Source: Iphione sp. A-MEVVRFRX5 (Eukaryota). From it: 64,000 nt of DNA. Positions 6,001-50,682 of the stretch are shown here, piece by piece; the stretch's first letter is position 1, and each line of letters begins with the position of its first letter. Location of the stretch: contig OZ320317.1 of assembly GCA_976226885.1 (NCBI GenBank), forward strand, positions 80,352,001 through 80,416,000. Direction: 5' to 3'. The position numbers and the translations under genes were made by a program. The notes under the pieces are model-generated. The model saw only the letters and a program-made list of their open reading frames with translations. It was not told the origin of the DNA and searched no databases.

Positions 6001-6858
6001 GAGAGCAGAATTACATTCTACTTTTCACACAGGTGGAACACACTCCGAGCAAGGTGCTGACTTAACGACTTGTACTCATCCGGATATTTATTTCCTGAAT
6101 GACATGTTGGCCCGGGTTTATTGGAGATTGTGTCCGGAATCATCGACCGACCGGAAATTAAACGTAGTTTTGAACCCCGTACCCATAGTCTGTGGAGCAT
6201 GTATAGCCAAGCGGTTGATTTTTATGACTTGTCACATTAATATGCACTTCTTTGCATGAAGGAATAAGCCCCGTACTATTTGCTGCTCCTATACCTATTG
6301 TTCTCCCCCAGTCTCACGTTCCCTAATTACTGTTCCTTATCACAAACCTAACTCCTTCTTATCCTCTCGGTCACCATCCTTCCCCTTCCTCTTCCGTTTC
6401 CTCCCTTCCCCTTCGCTTCACCTGGACGTTTGATGTTCTGGGTTGCCAAGTTACAAGGTTACTGTTTGGACGAGGTGGAGATACTGAAGGTAAAAGGTCA
6501 TAGGTCACATTGATAATGTATTGGTCTGTTTTTTGTACAGTAGGGAAATGAAAAGAAAAGGACTGAAAACAACACGAAGTCCTCTAAGACAAAACTGTGA
6601 TTAAACAAGAAGCTCACATCCTCCAGGCATGCAGACAGCTGATAAGGCAGCGATATGGAACAAGCAAGGCAAGCATGGCAATGCTAAAAGGTCATTGCGG
6701 ACTAGAGCGATACAAAGGCTGAAGAATCGAGGAAACGTTTTCATCCTCCTCCATAAGAAATGTTAATATGACCACCCTTTTATATGTCTCCTAATGAAAT
6801 GTGAAGAGATGACAAAGTACATCCACTGAGGCATCAGGTATTCATTGCTGAACTCACT

Positions 6859-7135
6859 AAGTGAAAGCCGCACTGGTCGGTGAACTCTCCAGGTGAAAGC
6901 CATCCTGGTTTTTGAACTCCCTGAATGAAGCTATACTGGTTTGTGAACTTTCTAAGTAAAGGTCATACTGGTTGATGAACTCCCTGAATGAAAGCCATAC
7001 TGGATGGTAAACTCCTTGAGTGCAATGCATACTGGTTGGTAAACCCCCATGAGTGAAAGCCATATTGGTTGGTGATCTCCCTGAGTGAAAGGCATATATG
7101 TTGGTAACTCCCAAAGTGAAAGCCATACGTGTTGC
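6859..7135. repeat. Degenerate ~32-bp minisatellite, ~9 copies (consensus approx. GAGTGAAAGCCATACTGGTTGGTGAACTCCCT)
   Basis: Units read directly, e.g. aagtgaaagccgcactggtcggtgaactctcc / aggtgaaagccatcctggtttttgaactccct / gaatgaaagccatactggatggtaaactcctt. ORF 6857..7162(-) is a translation of this repeat. Confidence 0.9.
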
Positions 7136-7484
7136 GGGATTTTCAGGCAGTGCTATGGTCAAAAAGAATTAAGTCCATCATGGACATTGCCGCAGACTGC
7201 CAGGTAGTTACCCTCGTCGTTCATCATTTAACTGGGTTCACATTTGTTGGATGGAACTCACACAGCTGAAGAGCGTGTTTATAGATGTTGAGTAATGGAG
7301 GCTTATCTGCTTTCTGATGAGTTGGCTAAAAGGAAGACACGAAGCTCGATCACTAAACTAAAGTATTTGCAGCATGTCAGTCAGCTCTAGATAAATCGAT
7401 TTTCCTTACATAATCACTTGGGACTGAGAAAGACCACAAACTTTATTTAATAAATTTTTCCAGGAAGGGCCACACAGTCTGTAT

Positions 7485-7798
7485 TGTTGGAGCCACCGTG
7501 TGGCTGCGGTGCCGCGGCACACGAGGGGTGCTGCGGCACAAGTGGATCAGACTAGTAGGGTGCTGCGGTACGCCCCCGTGCGGCACTCGTAGGGGTGCTG
7601 CGGAGCTAGGAGGGGTCCGGTACCCGGATGCTGAGGAGACTGGGGATGGGTATATAAGGGAGTTGGCCCTCCGGGCAGTTCAGACTACTGTTGGTGCTCA
7701 TTGTTGGTGCTTACTTGTTGATGCTCGTTATTGCTCTTACTGAATAAACCTCATTACCTTAACTGGAGTCATGTCTTACTTGCGGAGCGGACGCTACA
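7485..7798 (+). repeat. 5' LTR (314 bp)
   Basis: TGTTGGAGCC...GACGCTACA. It matches 17122-17435 with 9 substitutions and no indels (305/314, 97.1%) by manual alignment. TATATAA at 7651-7657, AATAAA at 7743-7748. Confidence 0.98.
7651..7657 (+). promoter_or_regulatory. LTR TATA box (U3)
   Basis: gggTATATAAggg lies ~90 bp upstream of the LTR AATAAA, the usual U3-R layout. The position of the transcription start is inferred. Confidence 0.75.
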
Positions 7799-7799
7799 T

Positions 7800-7817
7800 T
7801 GGTGGCAGCGGTGGGAT
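7800..7817 (+). other. Primer-binding site complementary to the tRNA-Leu 3' end
   Basis: TGGTGGCAGCGGTGGGAT starts 1 nt after the LTR end. It is the reverse complement of ...AUCCCACCGCUGCCA-CCA, the 3' end of metazoan tRNA-Leu (AAG/UAG type). Confidence 0.92.
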
Positions 7818-8292
7818 AGAGGAATCGCCCACGGGTGCACCGCAACCGCGAGGACGGGGGACGCGCCCTGTTCCCCGGGGGGGACATGTGGGACGTACCA
7901 TCCCCCACGAGTGGTCCCCCACGAGGGGAGACTCCAGCACTGAGGATGAGGAAGTGCAGCTCAGGGCGCATCGTGTGCCGTGGGGCCGCGGCACCCCACC
8001 GTGCCGCAGCACCCCACCGCGCCGCACCACCCCGCCGTGCCGCAGCACCCCGTTGCACCGCAGCGGCACAGTGCTGTCGGACGAAGACCACTCGTCGAGC
8101 CGCAGCAGCAGTGAGGATTCTTCTATCCCCAGCGGGGCCGGCTCACCACGCGGGGGGGGCTGCGACGACGCCACGCCCGGGGCCCCCACCGGAGTAGGAG
8201 GACAGGCGGGTGGGACGGCAAGCCCCAGCGACCCTGCTACGCCAGTCTCCCCACCACCCGAAGTCCCACCAGCTGGCTCTTCCCCGCACAAC

Positions 8293-9167
8293 ATGAGCCC
8301 TGCTGGGAACGGGCAAGGAAATGCCGCGCAGTTGATGCGGGGCCTGATGGACGAGATCCAGTCTGCTCTCCGGCCTGCCCCCCCGATACCCCCTGCACGC
8401 CGGTTTCATGTCAAACCGGAAACCTTTAATGGGGGAGTTCCGCTCGCAGAATATTTGCATCACTTCTCACTGGTGGCCCGGGCTAACCGATGGGACGAAG
8501 CGGAACAGGTGCTGCAGCTCAGCGTGTGCCTCAGGGGCTCGGCACAATCCGGCCTTCGCTCGGCCAACGTGGATGTTATGAACATTATGAACAGGAATTG
8601 AAACAACGTCGCCAGAGGAAAGACGAGGACGTTCAGAAACTGGCCGAGGAGGTTGAGAGGTTGGTACGGCAGGCCTATCCAGAGGCAGAGGGCTCCTGGT
8701 TGGATCGAATGTGCAAGGATGCCTTCGTCTCGGCCCTCCGCGAAGAACGTTGCCGGAGATGGGTTGTGCAAGCTAAGGCCCGGTCCTTCCAGGCAGCCAT
8801 CTCGGAGGCGCTTTTGGCTGAGTCGTATCACCGTGCTGAGAAGGAGCGCAGCCCGGGGGCTGGGACAACGCGCATCCATGCGGCACAGGCCGAATCTCAG
8901 GAGGTAGCTGCGGCTAGCCATGACCCCAAGACAACGACCGGATTGGAGCGCATTGAGCAGCTCCTGTCCAAGCTACTGGAACAGCCCGCAACAACCTCTC
9001 CCCCCATTCGGTGAGGGGGCAAGCGCACGAACAACGAAGGATACTTTTACTGCAAGGAGCCCGGGCACTTCAAGCGGGACTGCCCGGTGCGGAAGGCAGC
9101 CGAGAGCACCGCCGACGTTGCCCCGACACAGCCGGAAAACGAGAAGCCGCCCGCCCCGGCTCAGTAG
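8293..9167 (+). pseudogene. gag: Gypsy gag, disrupted
   Basis: Capsid-like motifs KPETFNG..PLAEYLHHF..VARANRW..LQL..CLRG, then ELKQRRQ..EDVQKLAEEVERLVRQAYP in another frame (deletion/frameshift near 8550). In-frame TGA at 9012-9014. Zinc knuckle YFYCKEPGHFKRDC at 9042-9083 has its first Cys changed to Tyr. Natural stop TAG at 9165-9167. The start codon is uncertain; the frame is open upstream to 7771. Confidence 0.9.
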
Positions 9168-12100
9168 GGCGGGCGGCGTCCGATTCCATACCACCCGGCC
9201 TGGGACCCCCCTTGGAGGCGATGGTCGCTGCCGTTGAGGGGGAGCCAGGAAGGATACTGCAGGGAAGGAGGCGGACGGGGTGCTGGGGAGTATTGCTGGA
9301 GGGAATGGTCGGCGGACAGATGGTGGATTGGCTGGTGGACACAGGAGCCTCCGCTGCCCTCCTCTCAGCGCAGACATACCGAGAACTACGGGGAGTGCCA
9401 TTGGACCCGGCGGGGGCGTGAGTCTTTGGAGTGGATGGCAGCGCCCTACAAGTGTTAGGGCTGGTGGATTGCAAAGTTCAGTTCGCAGGGGTCACCCTGC
9501 AGGTGGTAGCCATTGTGGTAGAGATGGGGATACCGGGCCTGCTTGGCTTGGACTGGCTGGATCGGTGGGCGGCAACAGTGGATACGAGGAAGGCCATGGT
9601 CACTGTTTGGCCCGACAACCACGAACGGGTGGCAACCCTGCGAGCCAGCGGCAGTCAGGAGATTCCTGCGGGAGGGGTAGGCTGGGTTCAGGCGAAGGCG
9701 TGTCAAGGAAAGGTCGACTCTTTGGAAGGGTTGGCGGAGCCCGACGCCAGGTTCGAGTCGCGCTCAGGGTTACGAGTGGCTCGCGCGCTGGTGCGACCCC
9801 AGGAGGGGAGGGTGTGGGTCCCAGTGTGGAACCCTGGCTCCCAGGTGACACGAGTCTTCGAGGGAACCCAACTAGCCGAGCTCCGTCAAGTAGCAGCGGT
9901 GCTGGGGCCACCCGGAGCTCCCCAGGAACAGGTGGAAACGGAGCAAGAACAAGCTGTGGAGTACTTGCTAGGACAACTACTGGTGGAGACCACCGACCCG
10001 GAGAGACAGCAGATAGCGGCCATGCTACAGAGCCATCGCGAGGTCTTCCAGACAGCCAGTGGGCCCCTCGGCCGTACCCCAGAGGTCCGACACCGCATCG
10101 ACACCCAGGGTCACCCACCCATCCGACAACGAGCAAGGCGTCTTCCCCCACACAAGAGGGAGGCAGTTCACGCGGAGGTGGAAAAGATGGTGCAGAAGGG
10201 GGTGCTGGAGCCCTCCACAAGCCCATGGGCATCTCCGTTGGTGCTCGTACAAAAGAAAGACGGGGGGCTACGGTTCTGCATTGACTATCGCAAACTCAAC
10301 GCTATCACCAAGAAGGACGCCTTCCCCCTCCCCTGGATAGACGACACCCTCGATGCCCTGCAGGGTAGTCAGTACTTTTCGGCGATCGACCTGGCCAGCG
10401 GTTACTGGCAGGTAGAGATGGAGCCGGCGGATGCAGAGAAGACGGCAGTGTCCACCCCGAACGGCCTTTACCAGTTCCAGGTGATGCCGTTCGGCCTCTG
10501 CAACGTGCCCTCCACCTTCGAGCGGCTTATGGAGTCCGTACTGCGGGGCCTCGTGGGCACCGAGTGCTTGGTGTACCTCGGCGATGTGATCGTCCTGGGC
10601 CGCTCGGTGGAGGAGATGTGCACCCGACTCAGTACGGTGTTCCAGAGGTTGACTGAGGCAGGACTCCGTGTCAAAGCGTCCAAGTGTCAGCTGTTCCAGC
10701 GAGAGGTAGCATACCTGGGCCATCGAGTCTTGGCGGAAGGGGTAGGGGTCGACCCAGAGAAGATCAGGGCCGTAGCAGGATGGCCCCTCCCCCGGTGTGC
10801 GGCGGAACTTCGAAGCTTTTTAGGACATTGTTCGTACTACCGCAGCTTTGTAGAAGGGTTTGCTACCCTGGCGGCACCCCTGCATGCCTTGGCTGGAGCG
10901 GAGCGGGAGTTTGAGTGGTCCCCGGCATGCCAAGAAGCCTTCGAACAACTGAAAGCCCGGCTGTCCACTACCCCCGTCCTGGGTTACCTGACACCCCAGG
11001 GGCAATTGCTCTTAGACACCGATGCTTCCGACACCGGCATCGGTGCGGTGTTGTCCCAAGTGCAGGATGGGCGCGAGCGGGTGTTAGCCTATGCCAGCCG
11101 CACACTTACCCGTCCCAAACGGAACTACTGCGTCACTAGGAAGGAACTCTTGGCGGTGGTATTCGCCCTCCGGAAGTTTAGATGCTACGTAGGAGGCCGG
11201 GCCATAGATATCCGCACCGACCACGATTCCTTGTGCTGGCTGTGCAACTTCCATGAGCCACAGGGACAGCTGGCCAGGTGGTTGGAGGAGGTCTTCTGTC
11301 ATGACCTCCGGATCACACACCGGCCGGGAAGACGCCATGGTAACGCAGATGGACTATCACGGCAAGAGTGCAAACAGTGCGGCCGGCGAGACCCGGGGTC
11401 CGAGAGTGCGGCGGCCGTGGGCATCGCCAGAGTGGAGGGTGGCCCGGATGTGTGCCAGATGCAGAGGGCGGAACCGGCAACAGGCGAACTCATCCAAGCG
11501 CTGGAGGAGGGGGGGCCCCTCCCCGGAATGCGGGCTGGATTGACCTGGGAAGAAAGACAACTCAGAGCGGAAGGCCCGAGACTCGAGCTCCGATCGGGAG
11601 CATTGGTGCGCCTTTGGGAGCAGGAAGACAGGCAGAGGCTCCCTCAGACCTATGTCCCCCGGACCATACGGAAGAGCCTCTGGCAGGAGACCCACGCCGG
11701 CCCGGTGGGTGGCCATCTGGGTCCGGAGAAAACTGGAGCGGCGCTGCGCCGGCGCTGGTTTTGGCCCGGGATGTCGCGCGACATTGCACGCTGGTCCCAG
11801 TGCTGTCAGGCATGCCAGCAGAGAAAGGGTCTGGGGAGACGCCATCGGGCCCACCTGCAGGGACGCCCCGTGTCGGAGCCGTGGGAGGTGCTGGCGGCAG
11901 ACATCCTGGGGCCACTTGGGATAGAGAAGTCCCGGACCACCCCCTACCACCCCCAGAGCGATGGGGTGGTCGAGCGATTTAATCGCACATTGGGGAACAT
12001 GCTGGGCACACTGGCTGAGGAGCGCCGGAAAGACTGGGACCAAGCCCTGCCGTTTGTGATGGCCGCCTACCGGGCCACCCCTCACAATGCCACGGGAGAA

Positions 12101-12736
12101 TCACCGAACCAGACATTGTTACACCGGGAGGTGACGCTGCCAGTGGAGCTGCGCTATGGCGGCCCGGCTCCACCCCTGGTGGACCGTGGGGAATATGCGA
12201 GCCGGATAGCAGAAGAGGTCCGCCGGGCGCATGAGAAGGTAGCGGAGAAGCTGAGTCGCGTGGCGGCGCAACAGAAGGACTGGTACAACCGAGGGGTGCG
12301 ACACCAACGGTACGCCGAAGGCGATCGGGTCTGGCTCTTCACCCTGGCCCGTAAGAAGGGAATCTCCCCGAAGTTACAGAGCTGGTGGGAGGGACCTTGG
12401 AACGTGGAGAAGGCGCTGTCCGAGGTAGTATACCGAGTCAGTCGTGGGCATCGGCACAGAGTAGTTCATGCCGATCGCCTGAAGACCGCCCATCTCGACC
12501 CCCAGGTTACGTGCGGCGTCCAGGAGGCCGCAGCGGCACAAGACAGGATGCAGCGGCCCCCTGAGGAAGCCGCGGGGCCGCACGGTTATGCCACACCGTC
12601 AGGGGGCACCGCAGCCGCATCTCAGCATATAAATGGCAGTGCGCCGGGCCCCGCCTCGCCACTCGTAGAACCGCACGCTTCGGCCGGCCGTCTCCAGGCG
12701 GCACCAGGGGAGCCGCAGGAAGTTGCACCCGAGTGA
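9134..12736 (+). pseudogene. pol: Gypsy pol (aspartic protease, RT, RNase H, integrase), disrupted; in the -1 frame relative to gag
   Basis: Protease WLVDTGAS; in-frame TGA at 9419-9421; RT motifs DYRKLN, DLASGYWQV, MPFGL, with YLGD at 10574-10585 instead of YxDD; RNase H LDTDAS and TDH; integrase H-H-C-C zinc domain, DILGPL, YHPQSDGVVERFNRTL and a C-terminal GPW module. Putative slippery G_GAA_AAC at 9134-9140. Confidence 0.95.
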
Positions 12737-13468
12737 CACCACGCGATCCACAGCGTCGTGATCAATGCAGCACGTGTCGAACGCCGACAGAGCGCATCAA
12801 ATTCCCCCGAGCAGAGGATAACGACCCGAGGCCGCGGCGACAGAGAAGAATCCGTTGCCGCTCGACGACTTACTTCGACGAGGGATTCGCTGCGGCAGCA
12901 CGAGGTGAGGAACCTACCATTGGTAGCGGCACACATGGGCGATAATCGGGGTGGCGGGAGAAAGCCGCGCTGGGTGAGTGGCGAAGGGCGCGATGCACCC
13001 TTATTTTTCGATGAGATGTGCGGTAAACCTGTCGCCGCTGCGGAGGGAACTACCTGGAACCGTTACTCTCATGGGTACCTTTCTTCCGCAGCTCGACTGG
13101 CGTGCCACGCGGGGGTGGACTGCAGCCGCACCATCCCGCTCAGATGTAGTGGCCGCAGACTCGCACGTCCCAGTGAAGTTGCCTCCCTTCTGCCGGCCTG
13201 CGGCAGCCCAGCGGACAGCCCGCCGCGGCAGGGGCCTCAAGGTACCGCAGCGGCACCACCCGGTGACAATCAGCAGCAGGAGGACTACCGCAACGCCGCA
13301 GTCAGTGATCCACGTGAGGAGACTCGCAGTGCCGCAGCGGCGGACTCTACCCCGCCGAAGCCAGCCCAGACCTGCAGTGCCGCTGCAGCCCTCGCGGGCC
13401 CTGCACCGAGCGGCTGTGCGCCACCTGTGAACTGTGCCCCGCCAGTGCCGTACCGCCGCACCGACGCT

Positions 13469-16400
13469 ATGGCTGATATGCCAGAAGACGCCCCCCCACC
13501 AGACGCTGAGGGCGATGACTCGGAGTCCTCTGGCGAGGAAGAACCTGGTGTTCCGGAGGAGCGCCGCCACCCCTGCTCCCGCTGTGCGGCAACGTTCGCA
13601 CAGCCATCCAACCTGCGCTGCCACCTGAAGGATGTGCACGCGCCCGAGGGGTTGGGATGGTTGTGCCCTGACCCCGAGTGCGACCAGCAAGCCTTCCAAC
13701 GGCGCACCGACTGCAAGCGGCACCTGAATGGGGTCCATGAGCCCAATGATTGGGCTCTGACGGTGGACCTCCAGTACCTGCGGTTCTGGGGCCTCAACCC
13801 CACTTACGGGGAACCCCGCCTCTGCCCGGCCAACAAGGAGGAGATGCTTCAGCGAGCTCGGGCCCGAGAGAAGAAGAGCCGGGAGAAAGAAATACGAAGG
13901 GCCGCGGGTCGACCCCCGGCGCACAGAGGGGCCTCCAAGCGAAGTGGAAAAAGGAAGGAACGCTCCACGACGCCAGGGGAGGGTGGCGGCGACCGAGCGG
14001 AGGGACCTTCAGTGGCCGCCTCAGGAGCTGCAGCCCATCGGCAGCAGGGGCCCGGTGCTAGCTCGTCGGCCGAGCAGCCGGAGGACCGGGCAGAGCCACC
14101 GCCAGTACAGCTTTCGACATCGACTGGTACGACAACTCCGTCGGGACCACGAGCAATTGGGGGAACTCAGAAGGTACGACGCCAACGGGGAGCGCCCACC
14201 CGACAGCGGAGAGACCCCCTCCCCAGCTCGTCGGAAGAGAGTGCCCTGCCGTCCGCCCGGGCGCCTGGAGTGGTATCTCGGACGGTGTCTTCGGGCCCCT
14301 TAGGTGGAGCGGGGACCAGGACCGGGGATACCGACCGGAGTGGGAGCAGCTGCGCTGGACCCCCCCCGCCGCCCGCTACTACAGGAGCGCCGAACCCGGA
14401 TGGGGAAGGACCACCGCATTCCCCCCGGGCCGAGGGCACCGCCACCGCTCTAGAGAGATGAGGGGCGGGCCGCTCGGCAGACGCCCCGTGCCGAGGACCG
14501 CGTACCCCACCGGGCCCCCCACCCAGTAGCAGCTCGGGTCGGAACTCCTCCACGGATGAGGCACATCGCTTGGTGAAGAGACGTGCGGCCGGCGTCCCCC
14601 GCGAGGAGGGGCCGGACCATCGTACTCCCGGGCCTCCGTCATCGACTGCGCTCGATCTTCCGCCGGACAACGAAAAGGGGGGGTCCCCTGTCTCCAGCCG
14701 GACGCCGGATCGCGGCACAGGAACCCCCGACGGAGCGGGTGACGACAGTACCCCTTCCACGGCAGGGCCCTCACCCCAGGAAGCCCCAGGCCAATGCACC
14801 GGTTCAACTGAGGCCGCGACGGGGGATAGCCAGGGCAGTGGAGGGTCGGGACCCCCACCCCGCCTGGATCAGAGGTTGGCCACCCGCACATACGAGAGAC
14901 TACACCGCCCCCCCACCCAAGAAAAAGGAGGAAGGGACGCCCCCCCACCACGGCCAGAGGTGGCCACACCCGACAGCATCGACCTGCCTGCCGGGGCGTC
15001 GCACTATAAGGGACGTAGGCTGTTCTTGGACTCGGCCAGTCAAACGTCGGCTGAGGAGCACCCCCCACAACTGCGGGTGACCTTGCCCCGGGCCGCGACC
15101 ATAGAGCCGGGGGGCGAAGGACCGTCCGGACTTCCTGGTGCGGCAGGAACTCGTCAGGTGGGAATCCGAGCAACCTTCCGGGCCTCCCCCGCTGCCCGCC
15201 TGTCGGGCTGTCGCCCCCGTGTCGCCTCCCTAGTATGGGCAGGGGTGCCCCCGACCGTCGTGGAGAGCCCAGGCCAGGGACCCCGTTCGGGGCGCCCTCG
15301 TGGGAGGAGGAAGAACGTCGACTAGATGAACGCCTGGGTGTCGGATGGGAGCGGCCGGAGGAGGGAGAAGTGGTGGACCTTGTGACACCGCCCGGATCCA
15401 TCACACCGTCTCCTGCTAAGAAACCGAGACTAGGGGAGCCCGCAGAAGCTGACCCGGCCGGAGAGCCCCCGACCACAGACCCGACCGAGACCTCCCCAAA
15501 GACGACACACAGGCCCACGAGCGAGGGGTATGCCCCCGAGAACGACGGTGAAGAGGAGCAGGAGCTAGCGACCCTCTTTGAGAAAGAATCATCAGAAGAG
15601 GAGCCGGAGCCCCCCCCCGGACGGTACTGCTCCGTGCCCGCAAGGCCCGCCAGTGCAGGACGCTGATTCCCGGGAGCCCCAGCCCACCATACCAACGACG
15701 CGAGGGGTGTTGGGGCATACTACCCCTCCAGGAGTGCCCGTGGGAGCCGGCGACGTAGATGCTGCAGGGACTACGGCAGGATGGTTGGGAGGTTCACCAC
15801 AGCAGGAGGAGGTTCCGACTCCTGGTACGCAGAGAGAGGCGGAGACGGAAGGGGGCCCGGTTGGCGGCGTGACGATCAAAACAACTACCGCAGAGGGGGC
15901 CAGGTCAGCCACCGGTCCAACGGCCAGTCCAGCCGTAAGCCCGACCATCGAGAAGGCACCAGCCGGGAGTCAACAAAAAGGCCTGACCGCCTCTAAACAG
16001 AAGAGTGCGGAGGTGACAGCGAGCCCGGAGCGGCCTCAGAGGCCCAGGGGGCCGACGGAGGGGGTACGTCGGGCCCCTCCGCTCCACCTTCAGCTGATGA
16101 TGCCGCCCTCACGGGGGGGAGGAGGCCGGCCCGCGGGGCTGGCCCGGAGCCAGGGTGCACCCCCGCCACAGGGAATAGCTCGGCCAGAAGGACCCCTGGA
16201 GAAACAAGACAGGGCCGTCGAACCCTCGACGGCTGGGGAGACCACAAGGGGCCGTGGACAGGGGGCCCCTTCCACGCCCACCCAGGGAACTCCAGGAGAC
16301 GAGGGAAGGGCGAGCCCCCGTGGGATAGCCCCAGTCAGGCCTTGGGAGGACCCGGCAGTGACAGCGCCGCCCGGAGGGCCCCCGCGCGGCCCGACACCTG

Positions 16401-16939
16401 GTCCTGGCCATGGAGTACGCCCTCCCCCGGGCCCCTCCCTTGTGCTGGGGCCACCGGCACTCCCGGCGGGAAGAAGGTGGGGGACGCGGCCAGACTCCCC
16501 TGCAGGCCCGCCCGCACCTCCCAGCGTACCCTGGTCAGCCCGGCCAACCCCTGGGATGGGAGTACCCCTGCAGGATGTGTCGGGCTCGTCAGGAGCAGAG
16601 GAAGAGGTCCCGGCCGCCGTGTACGTCTGGGCTGCATCCCAGCTGGTGTCACCAGAATCCACCCTACCGCCCGGGTGGATGGTCATCTCCAACACATCGG
16701 CCTTGGATGTACAAGTACTCACCGCCGGGCAAGTGAAAGTCGCCCTCCGACAAACCATCACCTTCCGGCGGCTTGGGGTGCCGGTCCCAGGCAGCGAGTT
16801 GGCTACATGGTACACCAACTACGGGACTGTACTGACGCGGGGCCGCCCAGTGCGACTCCTGGCCACGTGGCGGGAAGAGCCCACCGCCGGGGGCAACGTT
16901 GAAGTCTGTATCCGAGATTCATGGACAGTTCACCTGTGA
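13469..16939 (+). pseudogene. Accessory ORF3 of the Gypsy element: two N-terminal C2H2 zinc fingers, long Pro/Gly/Arg-rich linker and an unrecognised C-terminal domain (~1150 aa if reconstructed)
   Basis: ATG at 13469 in GCT-ATG-G context. CSRC..F....NL..HLKDVH and CPDPEC..AF....D..RHLNGVH at 13574-13738. Track ORFs 12758-14461, 14570-15325 and 15578-16939 share one frame, broken by TGA at 14459-14461 and an apparent frameshifted bridge (ORF 15235-15666; C9 run at 15610-15618). The reconstruction into one ORF is inference. Confidence 0.7.
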
Positions 16940-17108
16940 TTCCGGGAGACGAGTATAGCTGACGATTGGACTGTCCCTGGACGCGTGATATTATGAGGAA
17001 TGTGCTACTGGACTTGGACGTCAAACCGCCCTAGGACATGAGTGTGTTGAACAGTTACTAGTTCCAGTTACAGTTGGGAAGCGAGTTGCTTGAGGACAAG
17101 CAACCTCT

Positions 17109-17121
17109 AAGGGGAGGGCAA
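17109..17121 (+). other. Polypurine tract
   Basis: AAGGGGAGGGCAA immediately abuts the 3' LTR TG at 17122. Confidence 0.9.
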
Positions 17122-17435
17122 TGTTGGAGCCACCGTGTGGCTGCAGCGCCGCGGCACACGAGGGGTGCTGCAGCACAAGTGGATCGGACTAGAAGGGTGC
17201 TGCGGCACGCCCCCGTGCGGCACTCGTAGGGGTGCTGCGGAGCTAGGAGGGGTCCGGTACCCGGATGCTGAGGAGACTGGGGATGGGTATATAAGGGAGT
17301 TGGCCCTCCGGGCAGTTGAGACTACTGTTGGTGCTCATTGTTGGTGCTTACTTGTTGATGCTCGTTATTGCTCTTACTGAATAAACCTCATTACCTTAAC
17401 TGGAGTCATGTCTTACTTGTGGAGTGGACGCTACA
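17122..17435 (+). repeat. 3' LTR (314 bp)
   Basis: Direct repeat of 7485-7798. AATAAA at 17380-17385. Followed by the TSD GTAT. Confidence 0.98.
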
Positions 17436-18199
17436 GTATTAAGAGAAGACGTGGAGACAGTGTGTGTATAACCGGCCGGACAAGGTTAGCTTGACTTGCA
17501 GAGCTAAACGAGCCCGCAAGGTGAGTTCAGTGTAGCAAGTCTAGCGAACTGAGGTCAGTTATAAACACACTGTCTACATGTATGCTTTTTATTATTATGC
17601 CTATGCTGATGAAGAAAAGAATTATAAATAAACAGATGTTTACCTTTTTTGCGTGCATTCTCTTGAAGTCTCTGTTCTTTAGACAGCCATCTTGGATTCT
17701 TACATTAGCTTACCACGAAATTTGATCTTTTTCTCACTTACTAGGAAATACTAACGTGGGGAAAAGGTGTGTTTTATTTAAGAAGAAAATTTGACATTGC
17801 AATGGGAAACAACAACTTTGCTTTAGAGAATTAACTATTTTCTTCGACTTTTTGCATTGGACCATTATGCAAATCAGAATTATGTCTGAAGAAATAATGT
17901 TGTGAGTTTACTGAAGCTATGTGCGCAATACGAAGGTAGTGTGCTTTGTTGTAAAACGTTAAAGATTTATGTTTATGTTGATAGAACAGTTCTCAATCTT
18001 GTTGCCCGTGATAAAACCGTCAAGGACTTTCTTCTTCAGATGTATGACTGCAACATGTTTTTCGTTCTTATTTACAGTGAGAGAAGCCTGCAAAAGTAAA
18101 TATCGGCACTTCACATTGCCCTACAGCATTGAATATGCTAGGAAGATGGACGCAGCGTCTTTTAGTTACACGAACCGTTTCTGTCTGAGAAGACGGAAT

Positions 18200-18253
<54 letters not shown>
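18200..18253. repeat. (ATC)18 microsatellite
   Basis: Perfect run read directly. It explains the poly-I, poly-D and poly-M ORF artefacts in the track. Confidence 0.98.
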
Positions 18254-18395
18254 GTCCATGAAGTTCCTGAGATTGAAGTTTGGCATGTCCTGTAAGTACA
18301 GAAGGTGACATCGAAATAAGTGGATGTTTGCATTTTTCTTGGTACTCTGTACAGATGAATGTGAGTGCACGGTTGGTGAAGAAAATACAGTGGGG

Positions 18396-19635
18396 TTACC
18401 TGCATATCAGCAAGCTGGGCTTGGAGATAGTGCATGTTGGAACATCCTTTTTAGGTGTTGTAGCCATTGAACTCTCTGGGATTGCTACTGCTGTACAGGG
18501 TTGGGTGTCATCCGCTAAAATTTTAAACATTTCCTTCTGTTGTTGATAACTAGTGACGGCACAGTTTGACAGACTGGATACTAACTTATGGCTGGATAAT
18601 TGGGCTACGACTAACGGGTCAATGTTTGCGTGAAGAAGAGAAGTGCAGGAACTCTTCCTATTCATTTTGGGGCCTTCCAAACCACCTTCCTCAGCCTTTG
18701 TGCACATTATTTTCCCAATTTCGTTGGCGCCGATAGGCAGCCAACACTACCATATTGTCCTTTCCAGCTTCCTCTTATGAGTTATGGTAAGGCAGAAAGG
18801 TGCCTCTGGACATATCTCTGAAGGAAGATGTTTTTCATACTCACCGAGTACAAAAATCGGACATCTTTCCAGATGGCTTCCATTCTTCCACAGCTTCGGA
18901 TTAAACACGCTTTCGTGGCTGTCATCACCCTGCCTTGTTTTTGTAATCGATTCATTAAATTCTACATATGTTTGGCCTTCTGAGTCGTTCTTCAGGGTGA
19001 TGTCCCTCCGATTCAGCTGGCAACTCTCTTGGCGGCCACGGAAGCCTAAACGTCTTATTTAAAATGTACCACAATGCATTTCAGAGTCCTCAAGGGGTTT
19101 CAGATGTTAACATATTCCTTTTCCAAAGAATGTTTTCCTCTTCTGGGGTCAGGGAGTCAGCCTGGGAAAAAAATTATTTCGTAAGAAAACGGTACGCATT
19201 TGATAAGATGGGATGGGTTTTGCCCGGTACAGCTGATAATTTGTTTACATTTTGCCGAAAGCGCGTTCAGTCGGATGAATGAACAAACTTGTACAACACA
19301 TACCGTGTTAGGTTTGTTTCCTAGGCCTTGTGCTTTTAACTGCTTCCTTCTTGATTCAAACACTTTTCGGCATGTAGCAAAGGCTGAATCAGTCATTAGG
19401 CATACCCCATAGGTCTTTTTTCGAAATGTCTCTTAACACTGCCAAACATCAATGTGAGAGATGTCAGTTTGTACTCTGCTCCATCATTGCCCTTTGCATG
19501 GAGAAGAAAGCGACCCAAGTAAAAATCCAAATCTTTGGGTGGGATGCTGCATTCTCAGAAATACTGGTTTAATTTCATTATGTCTCTGCGTAATTTCTTG
19601 ACTGTTTCTGGGTTGCAGTTTAGTTCTATGAAGCA
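18396..19635 (-). pseudogene. Crypton-type (DUF3504-like) tyrosine recombinase relic with a 142-bp intron (19303-19162)
   Basis: Manual minus-strand translation. Exon A: CFIELNCNPETVKKLRRDIMKLNQYF*ECSIPPKDLDFYLGRFLLHAKGNDGAEYKLTSLTLMFGSVKRHFEK/TYGVCLMTDSAFATCRKVFESRRKQLKAQGLGNKPNT. Then a phase-0 GTATGT...TTTTTTCCCAG intron. Exon B: ADSLTPEEENILWKRNML..., LGFRGRQE.., YVEFNESITKTRQG, ERCPI, QLSSHK, QQKEM. Stops at 19555-57, 19090-92, 19081-83 and 18747-49; the HxxR motif is damaged and the catalytic Tyr reads Cys. Confidence 0.85.
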
Positions 19636-19978: not shown

Positions 19979-20402
19979 GTAGATCTGGATGGGACCAAGT
20001 CTCTACAGTAGGTCTAGATGGACAGGGTCTCTACTATAGGTTTCTATGGAACATGTCTCTCCGGTAGGTCCAGATGAAACCAGGTCTCTCCTTTATATCC
20101 AGATAATACCAGGTTTCTCCTGCAGGTGCACATGGGACCAGGTCTCTTCATGTATATCTAGATGAGATCAGGTCTTCGCAAATAGGTCCAGATGGAACTA
20201 GGTCTCTCCTGTAGGTCTGAATGGGACCAGGTCTCTACTGTATGTCTAAATGAGACCAGGTGTCTTCATGTATGTCCAGGGAGGCCAGGTCTCTCATGTA
20301 GGTCCAGAAGAAAGATCTCTTCCATAGATCTTCATGGAATCTCGTCACTCATGTAAGTCTGAATGGGACCATGTCTCTTCAGGTAAGTACAAGTTGGACC
20401 AG
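19979..20402. repeat. Degenerate 29-bp minisatellite, ~14 copies (consensus approx. GTAGGTCCAGATGGGACCAGGTCTCTCCT)
   Basis: Units read directly, e.g. gtaggtccagatgaaaccaggtctctcct and gtaggtctgaatgggaccaggtctctact. Confidence 0.92.
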
Positions 20403-21249
20403 TGGGTCACAAGGTCTAATGATGTCAGTTAATGCTGTAAGGTCCGAGTAGAGTCACTGCTCACTTACGCACATCGTGGTGAGGCCAGGTAGGATAGGGT
20501 AAGGGTCGAGGGTAAGATATAATCATACAGTCAACATGTATTTGGCAAATCATTAGCTTCTAACGTGTTTCTGTACTTCGACCATTCACTTATTTTCTCT
20601 GGCGACACTGGCTGTGTGAGAGTACATTCAGTAGTGTCGGATCCTTTCCTAACCTGCTATCAAACTTCCAATCATCCCCGCTGAGCTACAAAAGAACTCC
20701 AGTAGATGTAGCAAAATTTGAAATAAAAAGTACTGATGCACCCGAGTGTAACTTGTGGAGGTGTTAAACTTGGGGATACAGGGAGTTGGTCGATACATTT
20801 AGATAGAAATCAAAAGGGACATATGAGTGGTCCTTGTTTAATAAGGTTTAGTGGAGAATTGTTTCAGATAATAAATGGCACAAGCCTGTCATGGATCCTG
20901 ATACCTCCGAAAAAAAAACTGTATCTGAAAAAAGTGTAGCGCTTTGGTCTCAACCCAGAATATTGGGCTTTCAATACTTAAAGAACTGTACTTTGCTAAG
21001 TTACGAAACCTTGGGTCTCAGGTCAGAATTTTTCAAACTCAAGATGCAAAAATGCAAGGCTCATGGCAATCTGCAGATATTCCTACTTGAACTGGAAGAA
21101 TTCCAACTTGAACAGTAAAAAGGCAGTCCAAAGGTGGTAATTGTTGCTAAAGTTAGCTGATTGATTATGTCACATGGCCATTTCGGAATGAGGAGGTTGA
21201 TGAGTCTGAACGGGCAAACCAAACACCAACATCGGAGGAAGATTCGACG

Positions 21250-22515
21250 ATGTCTGACACTGATACTGTAAGCACTGACGGGGATGACAGTCAGAAGCCG
21301 AAGGAGGCCCCACCGGACGACAAGGCCTCTGGTAAGTCAGATGATGTCGTAGTTTCACTACCGTCAATCGCTGAGGAGTTACGGGAGTTGAAGAAGTTCA
21401 TTAATGAAGAAATCTGTGGCCTCCGTGTTGCGCTAGAGCGGCTTAAGTCGGACATGTCAGATGTAAACAAACGTGTCACGGCGACTGACACGGTGGTAAC
21501 TGGCTGCAAGTCGAGGTTAACACAGCTAGATGCAAGGCTAGTATTAGCTGAACGCTACTGCGACCGATTGGATGACGATCTATCACGAGTGGAGATCTAC
21601 GATAGATCTAGAAAGCTCATGGTGGAGGGTGTACCTAACAAGGATAATATAAATCCGACGAAGTTCGCGGAGGATGTGGTGCACATAGCCACCGGGCTTG
21701 ACAGGCGAGTGATATCGGACATTATCTGTCTCGAAGACAAGGGAGTGACGAAGAATATGGGAGTATTGTTTGAATCAAGCGAACACCATGATGAAGCACT
21801 AAATAAGAAATCCAACTTAGCGCAAATGAAGGGATGCGGAAAGGTTTACTTCAAGGAAGACATTCCAGAAAGGGCTGTAGCGACACGCCGGAAGTTGACG
21901 AAGGTGGCATCGGCGGCCCGCCGTGAAGGATGTCGGGTATCAGTGAGAGGGCTGGATGTTATTATAGATGGCGAATCGTATGGATACAGCGACATCTCAA
22001 GACTACCGAAACATCTGGATCCGGGAAAGAATTCCCAGAAATTAGTGGGAGGCACCTACTGCGTGTCTAATGATGCAACTAATTTCTCAACCTTCGAAAA
22101 ATCGCCAATCTCGTTCAGAGGGAGACTTTACGAGAGCCTAGAGGTGGCGCTACAGGCAGAAAAGGCGCGATTCTGTGCGGACAAGAAGGCAGAAAGAGAA
22201 ATCAGAAGTGCAAGAAATTCTATAGCTGCACGAACAATTGGAAGCAAGATCCAGACATCGAAAACATGGGATGATCGACTAAAGGTAACGCTAAGTGAGC
22301 TGGTAATGAGCAAGTATGAGCTCAATCCATTAGCAAAAGCAGCGCTATTAAATACCAAGTCGAGTAAAATACTATTCTGCGACTGGGACAATAAGCTAGG
22401 GAATGGAGATGGTCCGAGGATGCCGAACAAGAAATGTCTAGCAAAGGCTAATGGGTGCAACTTGCTAGGGAATATATTGATGGAAGTGAGGAGTCAGCTG
22501 CAGGCGAACGCATAA
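21250..22515 (+). CDS. LINE ORF1p (coiled coil, RRM, CTD) fused to a C-terminal NADAR/YbiA-like domain, 421 aa
   Basis: aa ~38-117 heptad coiled coil. RSRKLMVEGVPN...VYFKEDIP..RRKL...IIDGESY matches the L1-type ORF1 RRM/CTD pattern. aa ~270-418 (nt ~22057-22503): FSTFEKSPISFRGRLYESLEVALQAEK...EIR...W...LLNT...DNKLGNG...GCNLLGNILMEVRSQL aligns by eye with E. coli YbiA FSNF..PI..DG..WPTSEHYFQAQK...GKNRLGYLLMELREQL. Confidence 0.9.
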   Translation: MSDTDTVSTDGDDSQKPKEAPPDDKASGKSDDVVVSLPSIAEELRELKKFINEEICGLRVALERLKSDMSDVNKRVTATDTVVTGCKSRLTQLDARLVLAERYCDRLDDDLSRVEIYDRSRKLMVEGVPNKDNINPTKFAEDVVHIATGLDRRVISDIICLEDKGVTKNMGVLFESSEHHDEALNKKSNLAQMKGCGKVYFKEDIPERAVATRRKLTKVASAARREGCRVSVRGLDVIIDGESYGYSDISRLPKHLDPGKNSQKLVGGTYCVSNDATNFSTFEKSPISFRGRLYESLEVALQAEKARFCADKKAEREIRSARNSIAARTIGSKIQTSKTWDDRLKVTLSELVMSKYELNPLAKAALLNTKSSKILFCDWDNKLGNGDGPRMPNKKCLAKANGCNLLGNILMEVRSQLQANA

Positions 22516-22748
22516 ATCATATAACTGCATCCTGTTATCGTGGAGTCTCAATTACAGCTATGGTACTGGCTGTTGATGAGACTTATGAATTTATTTACGT
22601 AACAGCGTGATTACTAGTCCGTCTGCAATGAAGTTCAATTCAGACAAATGTAGCCTTTTTCTATGTGTAGTATATTGAGTATATGTTGTTATTTCAATAT
22701 TCAGAGTTGGTGCTATGACAGAACAAGCACCGTGATAGGAGGAAGCGC

Positions 22749-23420
22749 GTGCGGGTGCTTATCATTGCCGACTACAGAACTGCTAGAGCAGTTACCAGAC
22801 TAGCATGTGGCAACCTACCTCGGATGACCCTACATACGGTGCTAGTAAGGAGGGCATCTTACAGGAGGCTGGCTCGGAAGCGGATGTTCGTGGACACATC
22901 CTCTTATGGGCTCGTCATCATCTGTATCGGGCTTCATGACATCATCAAGAAAGAGACGGGGAACTGGTGCCTGAGAACTGGATGGCGTCGTTCGTATCCA
23001 CACAGGCTGCATTACTACATGCAGTATTTGCGTAGTGTGGTATGCTCGGCCGCGATCCCAAGAGCGAACATACCGAGGCTTGTGTTCGCATCGGTTGCTG
23101 GCGCCGACTTCGCCCGTATGATGCCGGACCTAGAGGATGATGGTGAGCAAGCGCTGCTGGATAGACAGGTGGCGATCCACAATGCGATGGCTGAAGACTC
23201 ATGCAAATCGTATGGTCTGACCCCACTGTATTTGGACCACCCTGTCAACTCAATCGTCAATGGCAGGGTAAGGTACAACTGGGAGTATCTAGAATCCAAT
23301 GGTAGGACACCTACTCAATTAACAATCAGTGACTGGTCCTTCACGCTGCGTGAGTTCATTAAGCAGTATGTCCGCAAGTTTCATCCTGCGCTTCAGTGGC
23401 GTGATGATAATGAGGACTGA
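22749..23420 (+). CDS. SGNH/GDSL-fold (esterase-like) protein with degenerate catalytic motifs, ~223 aa
   Basis: Block I VLIIADY (GDS expected), block III VIICIGLHDI (GxND expected), block V YLESNGRTPT..W (DGxHP expected). No in-frame ATG: the nearest ATG (22715) is out of frame, and the frame opens after TGA at 22716-18. Confidence 0.7.
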   Translation: MRVLIIADYRTARAVTRLACGNLPRMTLHTVLVRRASYRRLARKRMFVDTSSYGLVIICIGLHDIIKKETGNWCLRTGWRRSYPHRLHYYMQYLRSVVCSAAIPRANIPRLVFASVAGADFARMMPDLEDDGEQALLDRQVAIHNAMAEDSCKSYGLTPLYLDHPVNSIVNGRVRYNWEYLESNGRTPTQLTISDWSFTLREFIKQYVRKFHPALQWRDDNED

Positions 23421-23806
23421 GATGGTTGAGACACTGCAGCAATTGAGCTTTAGCCTAGTGTCATTATTTACTACACTGCACTATTGCATTATCACTGTTG
23501 ATGATGTGCTGTTTCTTTTTCACTCGAGTTTGTTTGCGGTGTATGGTATACCCTATGATGTCTCTCTATTATATTCTTGTGCAGCATGACTTTTTGCGTA
23601 AGAGTATGGGTGGTTTTCTGAACCATTTCCCTACTAGTCATCTAGGGACAGAGTGTGAGGAAAATAGTAAATATCCAAGTTAAAGTGTAGAGTTCCACTG
23701 GAGAGTTACCTGTGATTGTATTAACCTACATAGACAATTTTCACTTCTTTCTTCTGTCGGTGGATTTATTTACCATTGTGTTGTCCTTATACCATCATGA
23801 CGATGT

Positions 23807-23840
23807 AAAAAAAAAAAATAAAAAAAAAAAAAAAAAAAAA
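23807..23840 (+). repeat. Internal poly(A) tract (34 nt, one T), followed by a 23-bp tandem duplication
   Basis: A-run read directly. GTACATCTTGTTACATGTAGACA occurs at 23848-23870 and 23873-23895. Confidence 0.95.
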
Positions 23841-24271
23841 TTAAGTAGTACATCTTGTTACATGTAGACATCGTACATCTTGTTACATGTAGACACCTTG
23901 CGTTCCGGTATCGTATCTATCTGCATCTAATTCAGGATCTATTACATAACTGTGATAGTACAAGAGTCCTTGGGTATCCTAGCCATAAGAAGATAATAAT
24001 CCTTTTCTTGGCAGGTACCATTGCCTAAGTGATTACATACCTGTGTTATCCTAGGAATTAGCCATGTACTCGAGTAGTCTAGCTGATAAATATACTGATG
24101 GTTAATATATATATTTGGAGTGTTCAGAAGATTAATTGTCCAGCCGCTGAGGCTGAGCAACGGATGAAAGTAATAGTGAAGTAGGTTGAACTAATGTGTG
24201 CATACGGCTGTTGTCTGTGTGTTGCCTGGTGTGGTGTGACTTGTACTGGGAGAGTGCCGTTGTGTGGAATA

Positions 24272-44208: not shown

Positions 44209-44562
44209 GGGTGGGGAGTTAGCTCAGTGGTAGAGCACTGGTCCACTGACTGAGAGGTCGCAGGTTCAATCCTGGGCCTGGGACTCCTGATCACGACCAG
44301 ACAGATTTACTGTAGCCCCAACCCAGAGTGGTCCACAACTCGTAAAAAGGCCGTGGGTGTATAGGATTCTGTCCCCTATGCACAAAAAGACCCCAGAAAC
44401 CTATTCGAAATAAGAGTAGGGGACAACCCCGGGTATTCTGGTCTCTCAACTCTCAACAATAGATGGTAGTATGCTACCCCAGGAGGATATGGAAGATCCC
44501 TGTTGTATGATAGGTGAATATATTCCTGGTAAAAGATACAATGAAATGAAATGAAATGAAAT
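44209..44562 (+). mobile_element. tRNA-derived SINE, MetaSINE-like central domain, (TGAAA)n tail
   Basis: Pol III A box TAGCTCAGTGG and B box GGTTCAATCC. Central gtggtccacaactcgtaaaaaggccgtgg...atgcacaaaaagacccc...aagagtagg resembles the Meta domain. Tail atgaaatgaaatgaaatgaaat. A second copy lies at 47983. Confidence 0.8.
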
Positions 44563-47982: not shown

Positions 47983-48355
47983 AGGGAGAGTTAGCTTAGT
48001 TGGCTGGAATGCTGACTAGCACTGGTCCACTGATTGAGCTGTCAAAGGTTGAATCCTGGGACAGGGACTCTTGATCATGACTAGACATTTACTGTAGCCT
48101 GAAACCAGAGTGGTCCACAACTTTTAACAAAGGTTGTAGGTGCATAAGATTTTGTACCTATGCACAAAAAGACACAGAAACATGTTCAAAATAAGAGTAC
48201 GGGACAACCCCAGGTATTCTGCTCTCTCAATTCCCAGTAATAGATAGTAGTGTGCTATCCAAGGAGAATATGAAAGCTATCCGAGGGGAATATGAAACAG
48301 CTTAAATGATAGCTTAATATCTAGTTCCTGGTTAAAGATACAATAAAAATGAAAT
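47983..48355 (+). mobile_element. Older copy of the same SINE family
   Basis: Colinear with 44209-44562 (agcactggtccactga, atttactgtagcc, ccagagtggtccacaact, tatgcacaaaaagac, aaataagagta, gggacaacccc, ttcctggt.aaagatacaat). A and B boxes are degraded. Confidence 0.8.
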
Positions 48356-50425: not shown

Positions 50426-50530
50426 GTATGTAGGTATGCATGTATGTATGTATGCATGCATGTATGCATGTTTATAGTTATGTATGTATGTATGTATGTA
50501 TGTATGTATGTATGTATGTATGTATGTATG
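50426..50530. repeat. (TATG)n microsatellite, pure from ~50480
   Basis: Read directly. Confidence 0.95.
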
Positions 50531-50534
50531 GCAG

Positions 50535-50682
50535 TTGAGGCATATCAGTGGGAATTGTGCAGTTTTCATGGAGGTTGAGGCATATTGGTGGAAATTGTTC
50601 ATTTTTTTCATGGTGCTTGAGGCATATCAGTAGAAATTGTGCAGTTTTTCTTGGAGGTCGAGGCATATCAGTGGAAAATGTG
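50535..50682. repeat. ~41-bp tandem repeat, ~3.5 copies
   Basis: ttgaggcatatcagtggaaattgtgcagttttcatggagg-like units start at 50535, 50575, 50617 and 50658. Confidence 0.85.

Follow-up and report, generated by a model that had tools for sequence, protein, structure and literature searches.

We analyzed a 64,000-bp stretch of contig OZ320317.1 from Iphione sp. (the window), in which positions 7485 to 17435 hold a full-length long terminal repeat (LTR) retrotransposon of 9,951 bp, with an internal region of 9.3 kb. Between pol and the 3' LTR, this element carries a third open reading frame (ORF3) that encodes two tandem C2H2 zinc fingers, and that we tentatively read as the gene of a regulator acting on the element itself. 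The element outside ORF3 is organized as follows.

7481 to 7484 and 17436 to 17439, unstranded: left and right copies of a 4-bp target-site duplication
7485 to 7798, plus strand: 5' LTR, 314 bp, with TG...CA ends, TATA at 7651 and AATAAA at 7743
7800 to 7817, plus strand: primer-binding site
7744 to 9165, plus strand: gag region, in pieces through a stop and frame changes
8957 to 12736, plus strand: protease and pol (pol frame 9422 to 12736), with Pfam reverse transcriptase, RNase H, integrase zinc-binding, and integrase C-terminal domains
17109 to 17118, plus strand: polypurine tract
17122 to 17435, plus strand: 3' LTR, 314 bp, with 9 differences from the 5' LTR

The element is a member of Ty3/Gypsy by all four features tested: LTRs with a target-site duplication, the primer-binding site and polypurine tract, the order of the Pol domains, and proximity to Ty3. 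The primer-binding site resembles what we take to be the tRNA-Leu type. Pfam matches to reverse transcriptase (RT), RNase H, and the zinc-binding and C-terminal domains of integrase (IN) were above cut-off and those to protease (PR) and the integrase core were below it, and the domain order, PR-RT-RNase H-IN, is that of Gypsy. The closest solved enzyme for RT/RNase H is that of Ty3 (Ty3-G Gag-Pol, expectation value (E) 3e-97; next other enzyme 8e-48). The label Gypsy, given in a preliminary description of this stretch, therefore holds. Of 6,351 Pol relatives, we examined the 120 best, to which all statements on Pol relatives below refer: the closest are 61–66% identical over RT-RNase H, the assignment staying at the level of Ty3/Gypsy, and those with names come mostly from arachnids, nematodes, fish, and frogs, which points to an animal host. 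A Pfam scan of the gag region matched no gag family, and a CCHC knuckle is visible there by eye at about 9050 to 9090.

The two LTRs are 97% alike (9 differences, 7 of them transitions; Kimura two-parameter distance 0.029), and G+C is 61–70% across 7485 to 17435, whereas the flanks are at about 40%. No match to the element occurs elsewhere in the window. This copy is decayed: the RT catalytic motif is not intact, and near 11915 the integrase core has a gap of 72 codons that four relatives possess. It probably yields at most an N-terminal piece of the ORF3 product. Several in-frame blocks of 20–83 amino acids found in these four relatives (at 9540 to 9715 and 11915) are missing from pol despite an LTR difference of just 2.9%, and the copy may therefore derive from a template that was already non-autonomous.

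Zinc fingers and extent of ORF3

The pol frame stops at 12734 to 12736, 4.37 kb before the polypurine tract, in agreement with the roughly 4.4 kb first estimated. Over 12737 to 17109, the finger frame contains 9 stops, compared with 34 ± 5 (minimum 20) in 600 shuffled frames. We found the following features in this region.

13469 to 13573, plus strand: start codon with a good Kozak context, followed by an acidic N-terminus, the first 40 amino acids without W, F, Y, or L
13574 to 13639, plus strand: C2H2 finger 1, CX2C-X12-HX4H, helix Q(-1) S(2) N(3) C(6)
13664 to 13738, plus strand: C2H2 finger 2, CX4C-X13-HX4H, helix R(-1) T(2) D(3) R(6)
13739 to 13966, plus strand: extension with a predicted helix and a basic stretch (net +13 in 40 amino acids), no family assigned
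13967 to 15325, plus strand: low-complexity coding region rich in Pro, Gly, Ser, Thr, and Ala, with an in-frame stop at 14459 to 14461
15292 to 15603, plus strand: segment in another frame
15370, plus strand: VVDL, resembling a SUMO-interacting motif (SIM), within the shifted segment
15412 to 15432, plus strand: PAKKPRL, resembling a nuclear localization signal (NLS), within the shifted segment
15508 to 15649, plus strand: acidic patch with hydrophobic residues
15602 to 16597, plus strand: second low-complexity region, 332 stop-free codons (0 of 2000 shuffles)
16598 to 16939, plus strand: C-terminal alpha/beta domain of about 110 amino acids, no family assigned

The two fingers are more than a chance pattern. 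A generic profile made from 600 database fingers scored 38.6 bits on the real frame (27.3 and 9.5 for the single fingers), whereas 500 dinucleotide shuffles of the 4.4 kb, read in six frames, reached at most 9.3 bits, and none matched the real score. All eight zinc ligands are intact. Finger 1 is fully classical in its Cys2-His2 ligands, X12 spacing, and Phe/Leu core; finger 2 is atypical in that it retains all ligands and the Phe, yet has an X13 spacing, one residue over the standard. Pfam C2H2 families matched below their curated cut-off (zf-C2H2_4, 19.8 versus 27 bits), PDB sequence matches to the finger region were mostly C2H2 proteins (best E 4e-4), and language-model neighbors were C2H2 clusters at 0.91–0.94, with recognition slightly below the tool's threshold. 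A single-sequence model of the finger region had a predicted local distance difference test score (pLDDT) of 42, too low for use. The acidic N-terminus, the fingers at 13574 to 13738, and the basic stretch, which starts at 13859, were confirmed where they had originally been placed. The extension, whose WALTV sequence starts at 13751, had been called conserved-looking; it lies where reported, but the description as conserved is not supported, homologue searches having given no relative of it.

We determined how far the gene extends with a codon model trained on pol, for which the null was 1000 shuffles. The pol-like codon signal was reached by 0 of 1000 shuffles for the fingers with the extension, by 0 of 1000 for 16598 to 16936, and by 23 of 1000 for 15292 to 15603. 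The low-complexity stretches between these islands have no pol-like codon signal and are stop-free beyond chance (47, 12, and 0 of 2000 shuffles). We infer that the pieces belong to a single gene, which spans about 1,150 codons, ends at 16939, and is interrupted in this copy by the stop at 14459 to 14461 and by frame changes near 15290 and 15600. The earlier limit of the ORF at 14461 accordingly gives way to a coding region that extends to 16939, and PAKKPRL, which is present as described, lies past the stop and in another frame rather than inside an ORF at 13469 to 14461. The C-terminal domain was modeled with moderate confidence (pLDDT 68, predicted template-modeling score 0.57). Its only fold matches, ferredoxin-like or tail-terminator-like, were at background (best Z 6.9, rmsd 3.1, 86 residues aligned; Foldseek best E 0.049 in PDB and 0.014 in BFVD), and we therefore infer no function from this domain.

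The earlier proposal that ORF3 is not env is supported, since no plus-strand frame has a signal or membrane segment: the top 19-residue hydropathy values in the three frames, by a simple window, are 0.89, 0.61, and 0.52. A search for fusion-glycoprotein homology gave no Pfam, PDB, or clear fold match. Likewise, KRAB, ZAD, SCAN, and BTB effector domains were absent, with 0 Pfam families at E≤0.1 across the ORF3 pieces. Short motifs resembling SIM, LxVxL, PxVxL, and CtBP-binding sequences occur in ORF3, the PxVxL-like one 7 times, and such motifs are common by chance.

Relatives were sought by several routes. Against 1.84 billion representatives, the finger region gave 1084 matches at E≤0.001; the best 150 of these were all generic, 149 of the 150 having at least three fingers by pattern, and none could be aligned with the C-terminal domain, with pol, or with the extension, for which the best score was 4.6 bits. 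Specific relatives numbered 0 of 43 candidates for the finger region among proteins of 579–2000 amino acids, 0 of 717 for the C-terminal domain among proteins of 199–2000 amino acids, and 0 of 138 in bacterial and archaeal genomes; PHROGs and NCBIfam each matched 0 of 4 proteins. For the C-terminal domain, the ESM Atlas gave no usable match, and the best E among PDB sequences was 0.93. This absence of ORF3 relatives is expected if the family is unannotated.

These data bear on the possibility that the element captured a host zinc-finger gene or mRNA on one occasion and that ORF3 has since been a neutral passenger. Host-gene capture by LTR elements does occur (PMC7264820), no second ORF3-bearing element was found, and the best database matches are the generic multi-finger proteins just described. 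We nevertheless consider such a capture very unlikely. The region after pol has a G+C of 66–70%, like the element and unlike the flanks at about 40%, and its folded parts use pol-like codons, which together argue for long residence in the element. Moreover, no host-type match among the best 150 reaches beyond the fingers, the zinc ligands are intact, stops are few (9 versus 34 expected), and the element is unmatched elsewhere in the window.

Expression signals and the boundary with pol

The finger frame is the pol frame, separated from it by the one stop at 12734 to 12736 and open from 12737. Two ATGs, at 12935 and 13016, precede 13469 in this frame. The start at 13469 proposed earlier is thus supported in one respect, as its ATG is well placed, with G at -3 and +4, and qualified in another, as the frame is already open from 12737. 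Two predicted signals lie ahead of it.

12628 to 12634, plus strand: TATAWAW box, candidate internal promoter, the sole one in the 9.3-kb internal region
12905 to 13091, plus strand: predicted intron, with donors after 12904 and 12973, a pyrimidine tract, and an AG ending at 13091

For the TATAWAW box, 0.03 occurrences were expected in the internal region and 10 of 300 shuffles contained any. The acceptor at 13091 scored highest of the 321 YAG sites in the element (52 of 1000 shuffles reach its score), and the donors 12904 and 12973 ranked first and second among donor-like sites of 7660 to 13092 (29 and 1 of 1000 shuffles); a branch-point-like word was noted in the intron by eye. Removal of the longer intron takes out 5 of 7 upstream ATGs (P 0.009). 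Splicing from a gag donor into the 13091 acceptor is possible, but the gag donors are weak (best 6.8 and 5.7 on an ad hoc score).

Because the finger frame continues the pol frame past a single stop, the main rival to a separately expressed gene is that the finger region extends Pol at its C-terminus, as a tail made within the polyprotein or by read-through of the stop, which would tether integrase to chosen DNA or chromatin. Chromoviruses tether integrase through a chromodomain, and SIRE1 uses stop-codon suppression to enter an env-like ORF. In keeping with a Pol extension, the shared frame runs on after the one stop for 244 stop-free codons (12737 to 13468; 4 of 2000 shuffles), palindromes described below hold one codon phase on either side of the stop, lesions affect gag, pol, and ORF3 alike in this copy, and extra Pol-tail domains occur among the relatives, with a CCCH-like finger in 2 of 120. 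We judge this explanation unlikely for the following reasons: Measured from the GP motif, the pol tail is 116 amino acids long, near the median of 121 for the 75 relatives that have the motif, so that pol ends where the pol of its relatives ends. The spacer at 12737 to 13468 shows no codon use like that of pol (849 of 1000 shuffles score as high), and the RNA downstream of the pol stop folds weakly (z -1.67, 11 of 200), on which ground a read-through hairpin was rejected. None of the 120 relatives has a tail that matches any frame of 12600 to 17120 at E≤0.1. Finally, a Pol fusion would leave the TATA box, splice signals, and Kozak ATG superfluous.

Pfam detected no chromodomain after integrase. 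A C2H2 pattern is present in 1 of the 120 relatives, at a position taken as integrase's own zinc-binding region. We also considered a true pol end in another frame near 12830, on the basis of an Arg-rich end motif in 51 of 75 tails, and rejected it, the profile being no better than shuffles (336 of 500). The two relatives with a CCCH-like finger, P0204 and P0245, have integrase tails of 235–244 amino acids that end in this finger (below the Pfam cut-off); the stretch before it appears macrodomain-like by eye and has no Pfam match. A separate spliced transcript of ORF3, as we prefer, and pol-linked expression could coexist.

A candidate target motif, GCGGCA

In an unbiased scan of 6-mers, GCGGCA/TGCCGC was the top word in U3 (4 versus 0.18 expected, exceeding all 200 best-of-shuffle scores), and GCGGCA was again the top word in 12737 to 13468 (8 versus 1.23, over the 95th percentile of the best-of-shuffle scores and under their maximum); it ranked seventh in the 5' leader. 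Its count is near expectation in pol (4 versus 2.5) and ORF3 (5 versus 2.6). The element holds 32 copies in 9,951 bp and the flank 6 in 42,800 bp, a comparison between regions of different G+C. The relaxed form GCGGNA occurs 5 times in U3 (0.55 expected) and 15 times in the spacer (2.74 expected; 0 of 1000 each), showed no clear enrichment in the 5' leader (4 versus 1.55, 72 of 1000), and was at chance level in gag, pol, ORF3, and host DNA. Around the candidate internal promoter the sites are grouped.

12501 to 13468, unstranded: motif cluster of 17 GCGGNA sites with 4 exact CCGC-W-GCGG palindromes (12528, 13035, 13245, 13332)

Exact CCGC-W-GCGG palindromes number 5 in the window, all in the element and 0 in the flanks, and the 4 in the cluster compare with 0.05 expected. 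Under synonymous-codon shuffling, 0.3–0.4 were expected and 0 of 3000 shuffles reached 4; the enrichment therefore persists with the amino acids fixed, which argues for a constraint at the DNA level too.

By the recognition code of C2H2 fingers, R(-1), D(3), and R(6) of finger 2 read GCG, and Q(-1), N(3), and C(6) of finger 1 suggest NAA. The resulting guess, GCGNAA, agrees with GCGGCA at 4 of 5 positions, as do 3% of hexamers, and 7% of those that contain CpG, by chance. The preliminary suggestion that the fingers act on GC-rich motifs of the LTR thus gains indirect support: the top hexamer is common to U3 and the region upstream of ORF3, it remains enriched with the amino acids fixed, and the helix of finger 2 fits its GCG half. 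Finger 1 fits poorly. ZFP57 binds TGCCGC through two adjacent C2H2 fingers (PMC3210328), and a helix Asp in place of Glu is reported to favor unmethylated C (PMC6222495).

We also observed a perfect 15-nt complement between U3 (7525 to 7540 and 17195 to 17210) and the 5' internal region (8000 to 8016), through which both ends of the genomic RNA could base-pair and which offers a possible RNA-pairing account of the motif copies in the leader. This touches a further alternative, in which ORF3 is a real gene whose fingers bind RNA or protein, for packaging, trafficking, or as a decoy for a host silencing complex, and the GC motifs serve a host factor or RNA pairing. The non-canonical linker, the atypical finger 2, the mere ~6 bp that two fingers cover, the suitability of the complement for 5'-3' pairing, and the SIM-like and LxVxL-like motifs (though common by chance) all accord with it. 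Set against these are the Arg, Asp, and Arg of finger 2 at three base-contacting positions, followed by the +13 basic patch, and the enrichment of the motif precisely at two promoter-like regions; we regard an RNA- or protein-binding role as distinctly unlikely.

ORF3 as a possible self-encoded regulator

We tentatively favor, at close to an even chance, the reading that ORF3 is a self-encoded nuclear DNA-binding regulator that works like foamy-virus Tas or plant VANC. From the sequence signals, a short internal transcript would start near the TATA box at 12628, be spliced at 12905 to 13091, and be translated from 13469. Its product of about 1,150 amino acids would comprise the two fingers and the basic patch, long disordered arms that bear NLS-like, SIM-like, and acidic patches, and the folded C-terminal domain. 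The fingers would read GCGGNA, finger 2 taking the GCG, at sites that are clustered in U3 and about the internal promoter, some of them arranged as inverted pairs. Binding would switch on the LTR as well as the promoter of ORF3 itself, or else protect these CpG-rich sites from methylation and silencing, and the outcome would be a family-specific positive loop. Separate expression, nuclear location, GCGGNA binding, and activation or protection from silencing, taken together, have in our estimate a little less than an even chance of being right. The broader proposal that an animal Ty3/Gypsy lineage encodes its own C2H2 factor from an internal spliced transcript, and that this factor reads an unmethylated CpG hexamer repeated in both the LTR and the internal promoter, thereby turning the family on or guarding it against silencing, appears somewhat unlikely as a whole.

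The same protein might bind its own motifs yet repress, as a self-limiting control of copy number. The motif and finger evidence is identical for the two directions, SIM-like and HP1-binding-like motifs fit a repressor, and ZFP57, with two fingers on the same hexamer, is a repressor (PMC3210328). However, Pfam found no KRAB, ZAD, or other effector domain, the patch at 15508 to 15649 combines acidic and hydrophobic residues, and Asp at +3 argues for action on unmethylated, active copies, which makes self-repression highly improbable to us.

Several observations weigh against a separately expressed activator or shielding factor. In the fingers, finger 2 has its extra residue and a Cys at the core Leu position, the linker is 8 residues long and non-TGEKP, and the N-terminal acidic patch is without the hydrophobic residues typical of activation domains. 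Finger 1 fits the motif poorly, since its N3 calls for A as the middle base and it has Cys at position 6, and exact GCGNAA is absent from U3 and present once in the spacer. The GCGGNA and palindrome patterns were picked after inspection of the data, U3 has no exact CCGC-W-GCGG palindrome, and a host factor could equally account for the motif. In the spacer, 4 of 4 exact and 6 of 7 near-exact palindromes lie in the Ala (Ala-Ala-Ala) phase of the pol frame, and the 244-codon run is stop-free beyond chance, as above (its two halves in 40 and 164 of 2000 shuffles); together, these facts suggest that the spacer is translated. Under synonymous shuffling the TATA box becomes less unusual (65–294 of 3000), and the splice scores are ad hoc. 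Finally, retention by a family and purifying selection would rest on a single copy, with no relatives of the extension or the C-terminal domain found.

Elsewhere in the window, a LINE-like element (long interspersed nuclear element) with three ORFs occupies 21157 to 27049 on the plus strand: ORF1 (452 amino acids) has at its end a NADAR domain that passes the Pfam cut-off (E 1.5e-16), the middle ORF (233 amino acids) has no family match and is SGNH-hydrolase-like by eye only, and the third is an unbroken 954-amino acid endonuclease-RT. On the minus strand, 18071 to 19058 contains an acidic frame beside a weak DUF3504 match (18750 to 19058, E 0.0013, below cut-off), possibly a remnant of what we presume to be Crypton origin. 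Degenerate tandem arrays flank the Ty3/Gypsy element at 6833 to 7087 and 19979 to 20378 (units of ~32 and 29 bp). A dispersed repeat of ~115 bp (44234 to 44348 and 48018 to 48130, 84–86% identical) resembles a short interspersed nuclear element, with a B-box-like word by eye; ARAGORN and Rfam found no tRNA and no Rfam family over the window. A (TATG)n microsatellite at 50411 to 50552, when read on the minus strand, mimics the C2H2 pattern and yields a false match.

Among known elements, the closest in layout are the Ty3/Gypsy families Vesta and Juno of bdelloid rotifers, which have an extra sense, non-env ORF between pol and the 3' LTR; their ORF3s encode a GDSL esterase, a DEDDy exonuclease, or coiled-coil or transmembrane proteins, and are typically separate, spliced units (PMC5408684, PMC5718144). 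The cargo here differs, with two C2H2 fingers, long disordered arms, and an unassigned C-terminal domain; the main text of the rotifer report does not contain the words zinc or finger. Errantiviruses (PMC13524379) likewise have a third ORF in this position and a splice acceptor ahead of it, but ORF3 here has no signal or membrane segment, and the accessible text of that source mentions neither zinc finger nor C2H2. Plant Tat, Ogre, and Grande ORFs (PMC7264820) and planarian Burro (PMC6431247) show large extra coding capacity, with some products nuclear and a regulatory role proposed; in contrast to ORF3, they are mostly antisense or fused to the polyprotein, and the portions consulted report no C2H2, Burro having a RING-type motif.

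In the proposed mode of action, ORF3 would resemble foamy-virus Tas/Bel-1 (PMC7390438), with a predicted internal TATA promoter upstream of the regulator gene and a DNA-binding product that would act on this promoter and on U3. Unlike Tas, it belongs to a Ty3/Gypsy element rather than a spumavirus, which has no env and no Pfam match to Tas, and its function would be as suggested by sequence. Furthermore, one motif is common to both promoters here, whereas Tas targets show little relatedness (PMC7390438). VANC of VANDAL elements (PMC6719617, PMC13547354) provides a second parallel, an accessory protein with a short motif at high copy in its own element and low copy outside, but in plant Mutator-like DNA transposons and with a MAIN-related rather than a C2H2 protein. 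ZFP57 and the KRAB-, ZAD-, and FiNZ-ZNF proteins (PMC3210328; bioRxiv 2022.11.29.518450) share the C2H2 fold. ORF3 differs from such host poly-finger repressors in its two fingers, absence of TGEKP and of KRAB or ZAD, Asp at +3, and position inside an element, and we take the hexamer in common with ZFP57 as coincidence or convergence rather than homology.

Accessory domains in LTR elements have been described (PMC6338049, PMC2774666), and non-env ORF3s are already known as a kind in Gypsy elements; the two-finger C2H2 cargo is, provisionally, the new part. Within the accessible literature, which excludes Repbase, Dfam, subscription journals, and supplements, no Gypsy element whose ORF3 encodes C2H2 fingers came to light; element catalogues in supplements or Repbase Reports could include such a family, and novelty is provisional.

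Even as a Pol fusion, ORF3 would represent a novel type of integrase tail. As a regulator, it would bring gene control in the style of a complex retrovirus to a Gypsy element, and a finger protein with a candidate cognate motif in one LTR element offers a testable pair for self-activation or counter-defense in an animal. C2H2 proteins are known as the host side of the conflict with retroelements (bioRxiv 2022.11.29.518450), and a 2019 review lists only three anti-silencing mechanisms that transposons encode, each of them from plants and none directed against the pathways of PIWI-interacting RNAs or KRAB-ZFPs (PMC6719617). If our reading is correct, the element would have built a loop like those of Tas and VANC from the very fold that hosts use against transposons, and ORF3 would be a candidate for the animal anti-silencing factor that, according to that review, was still undescribed.

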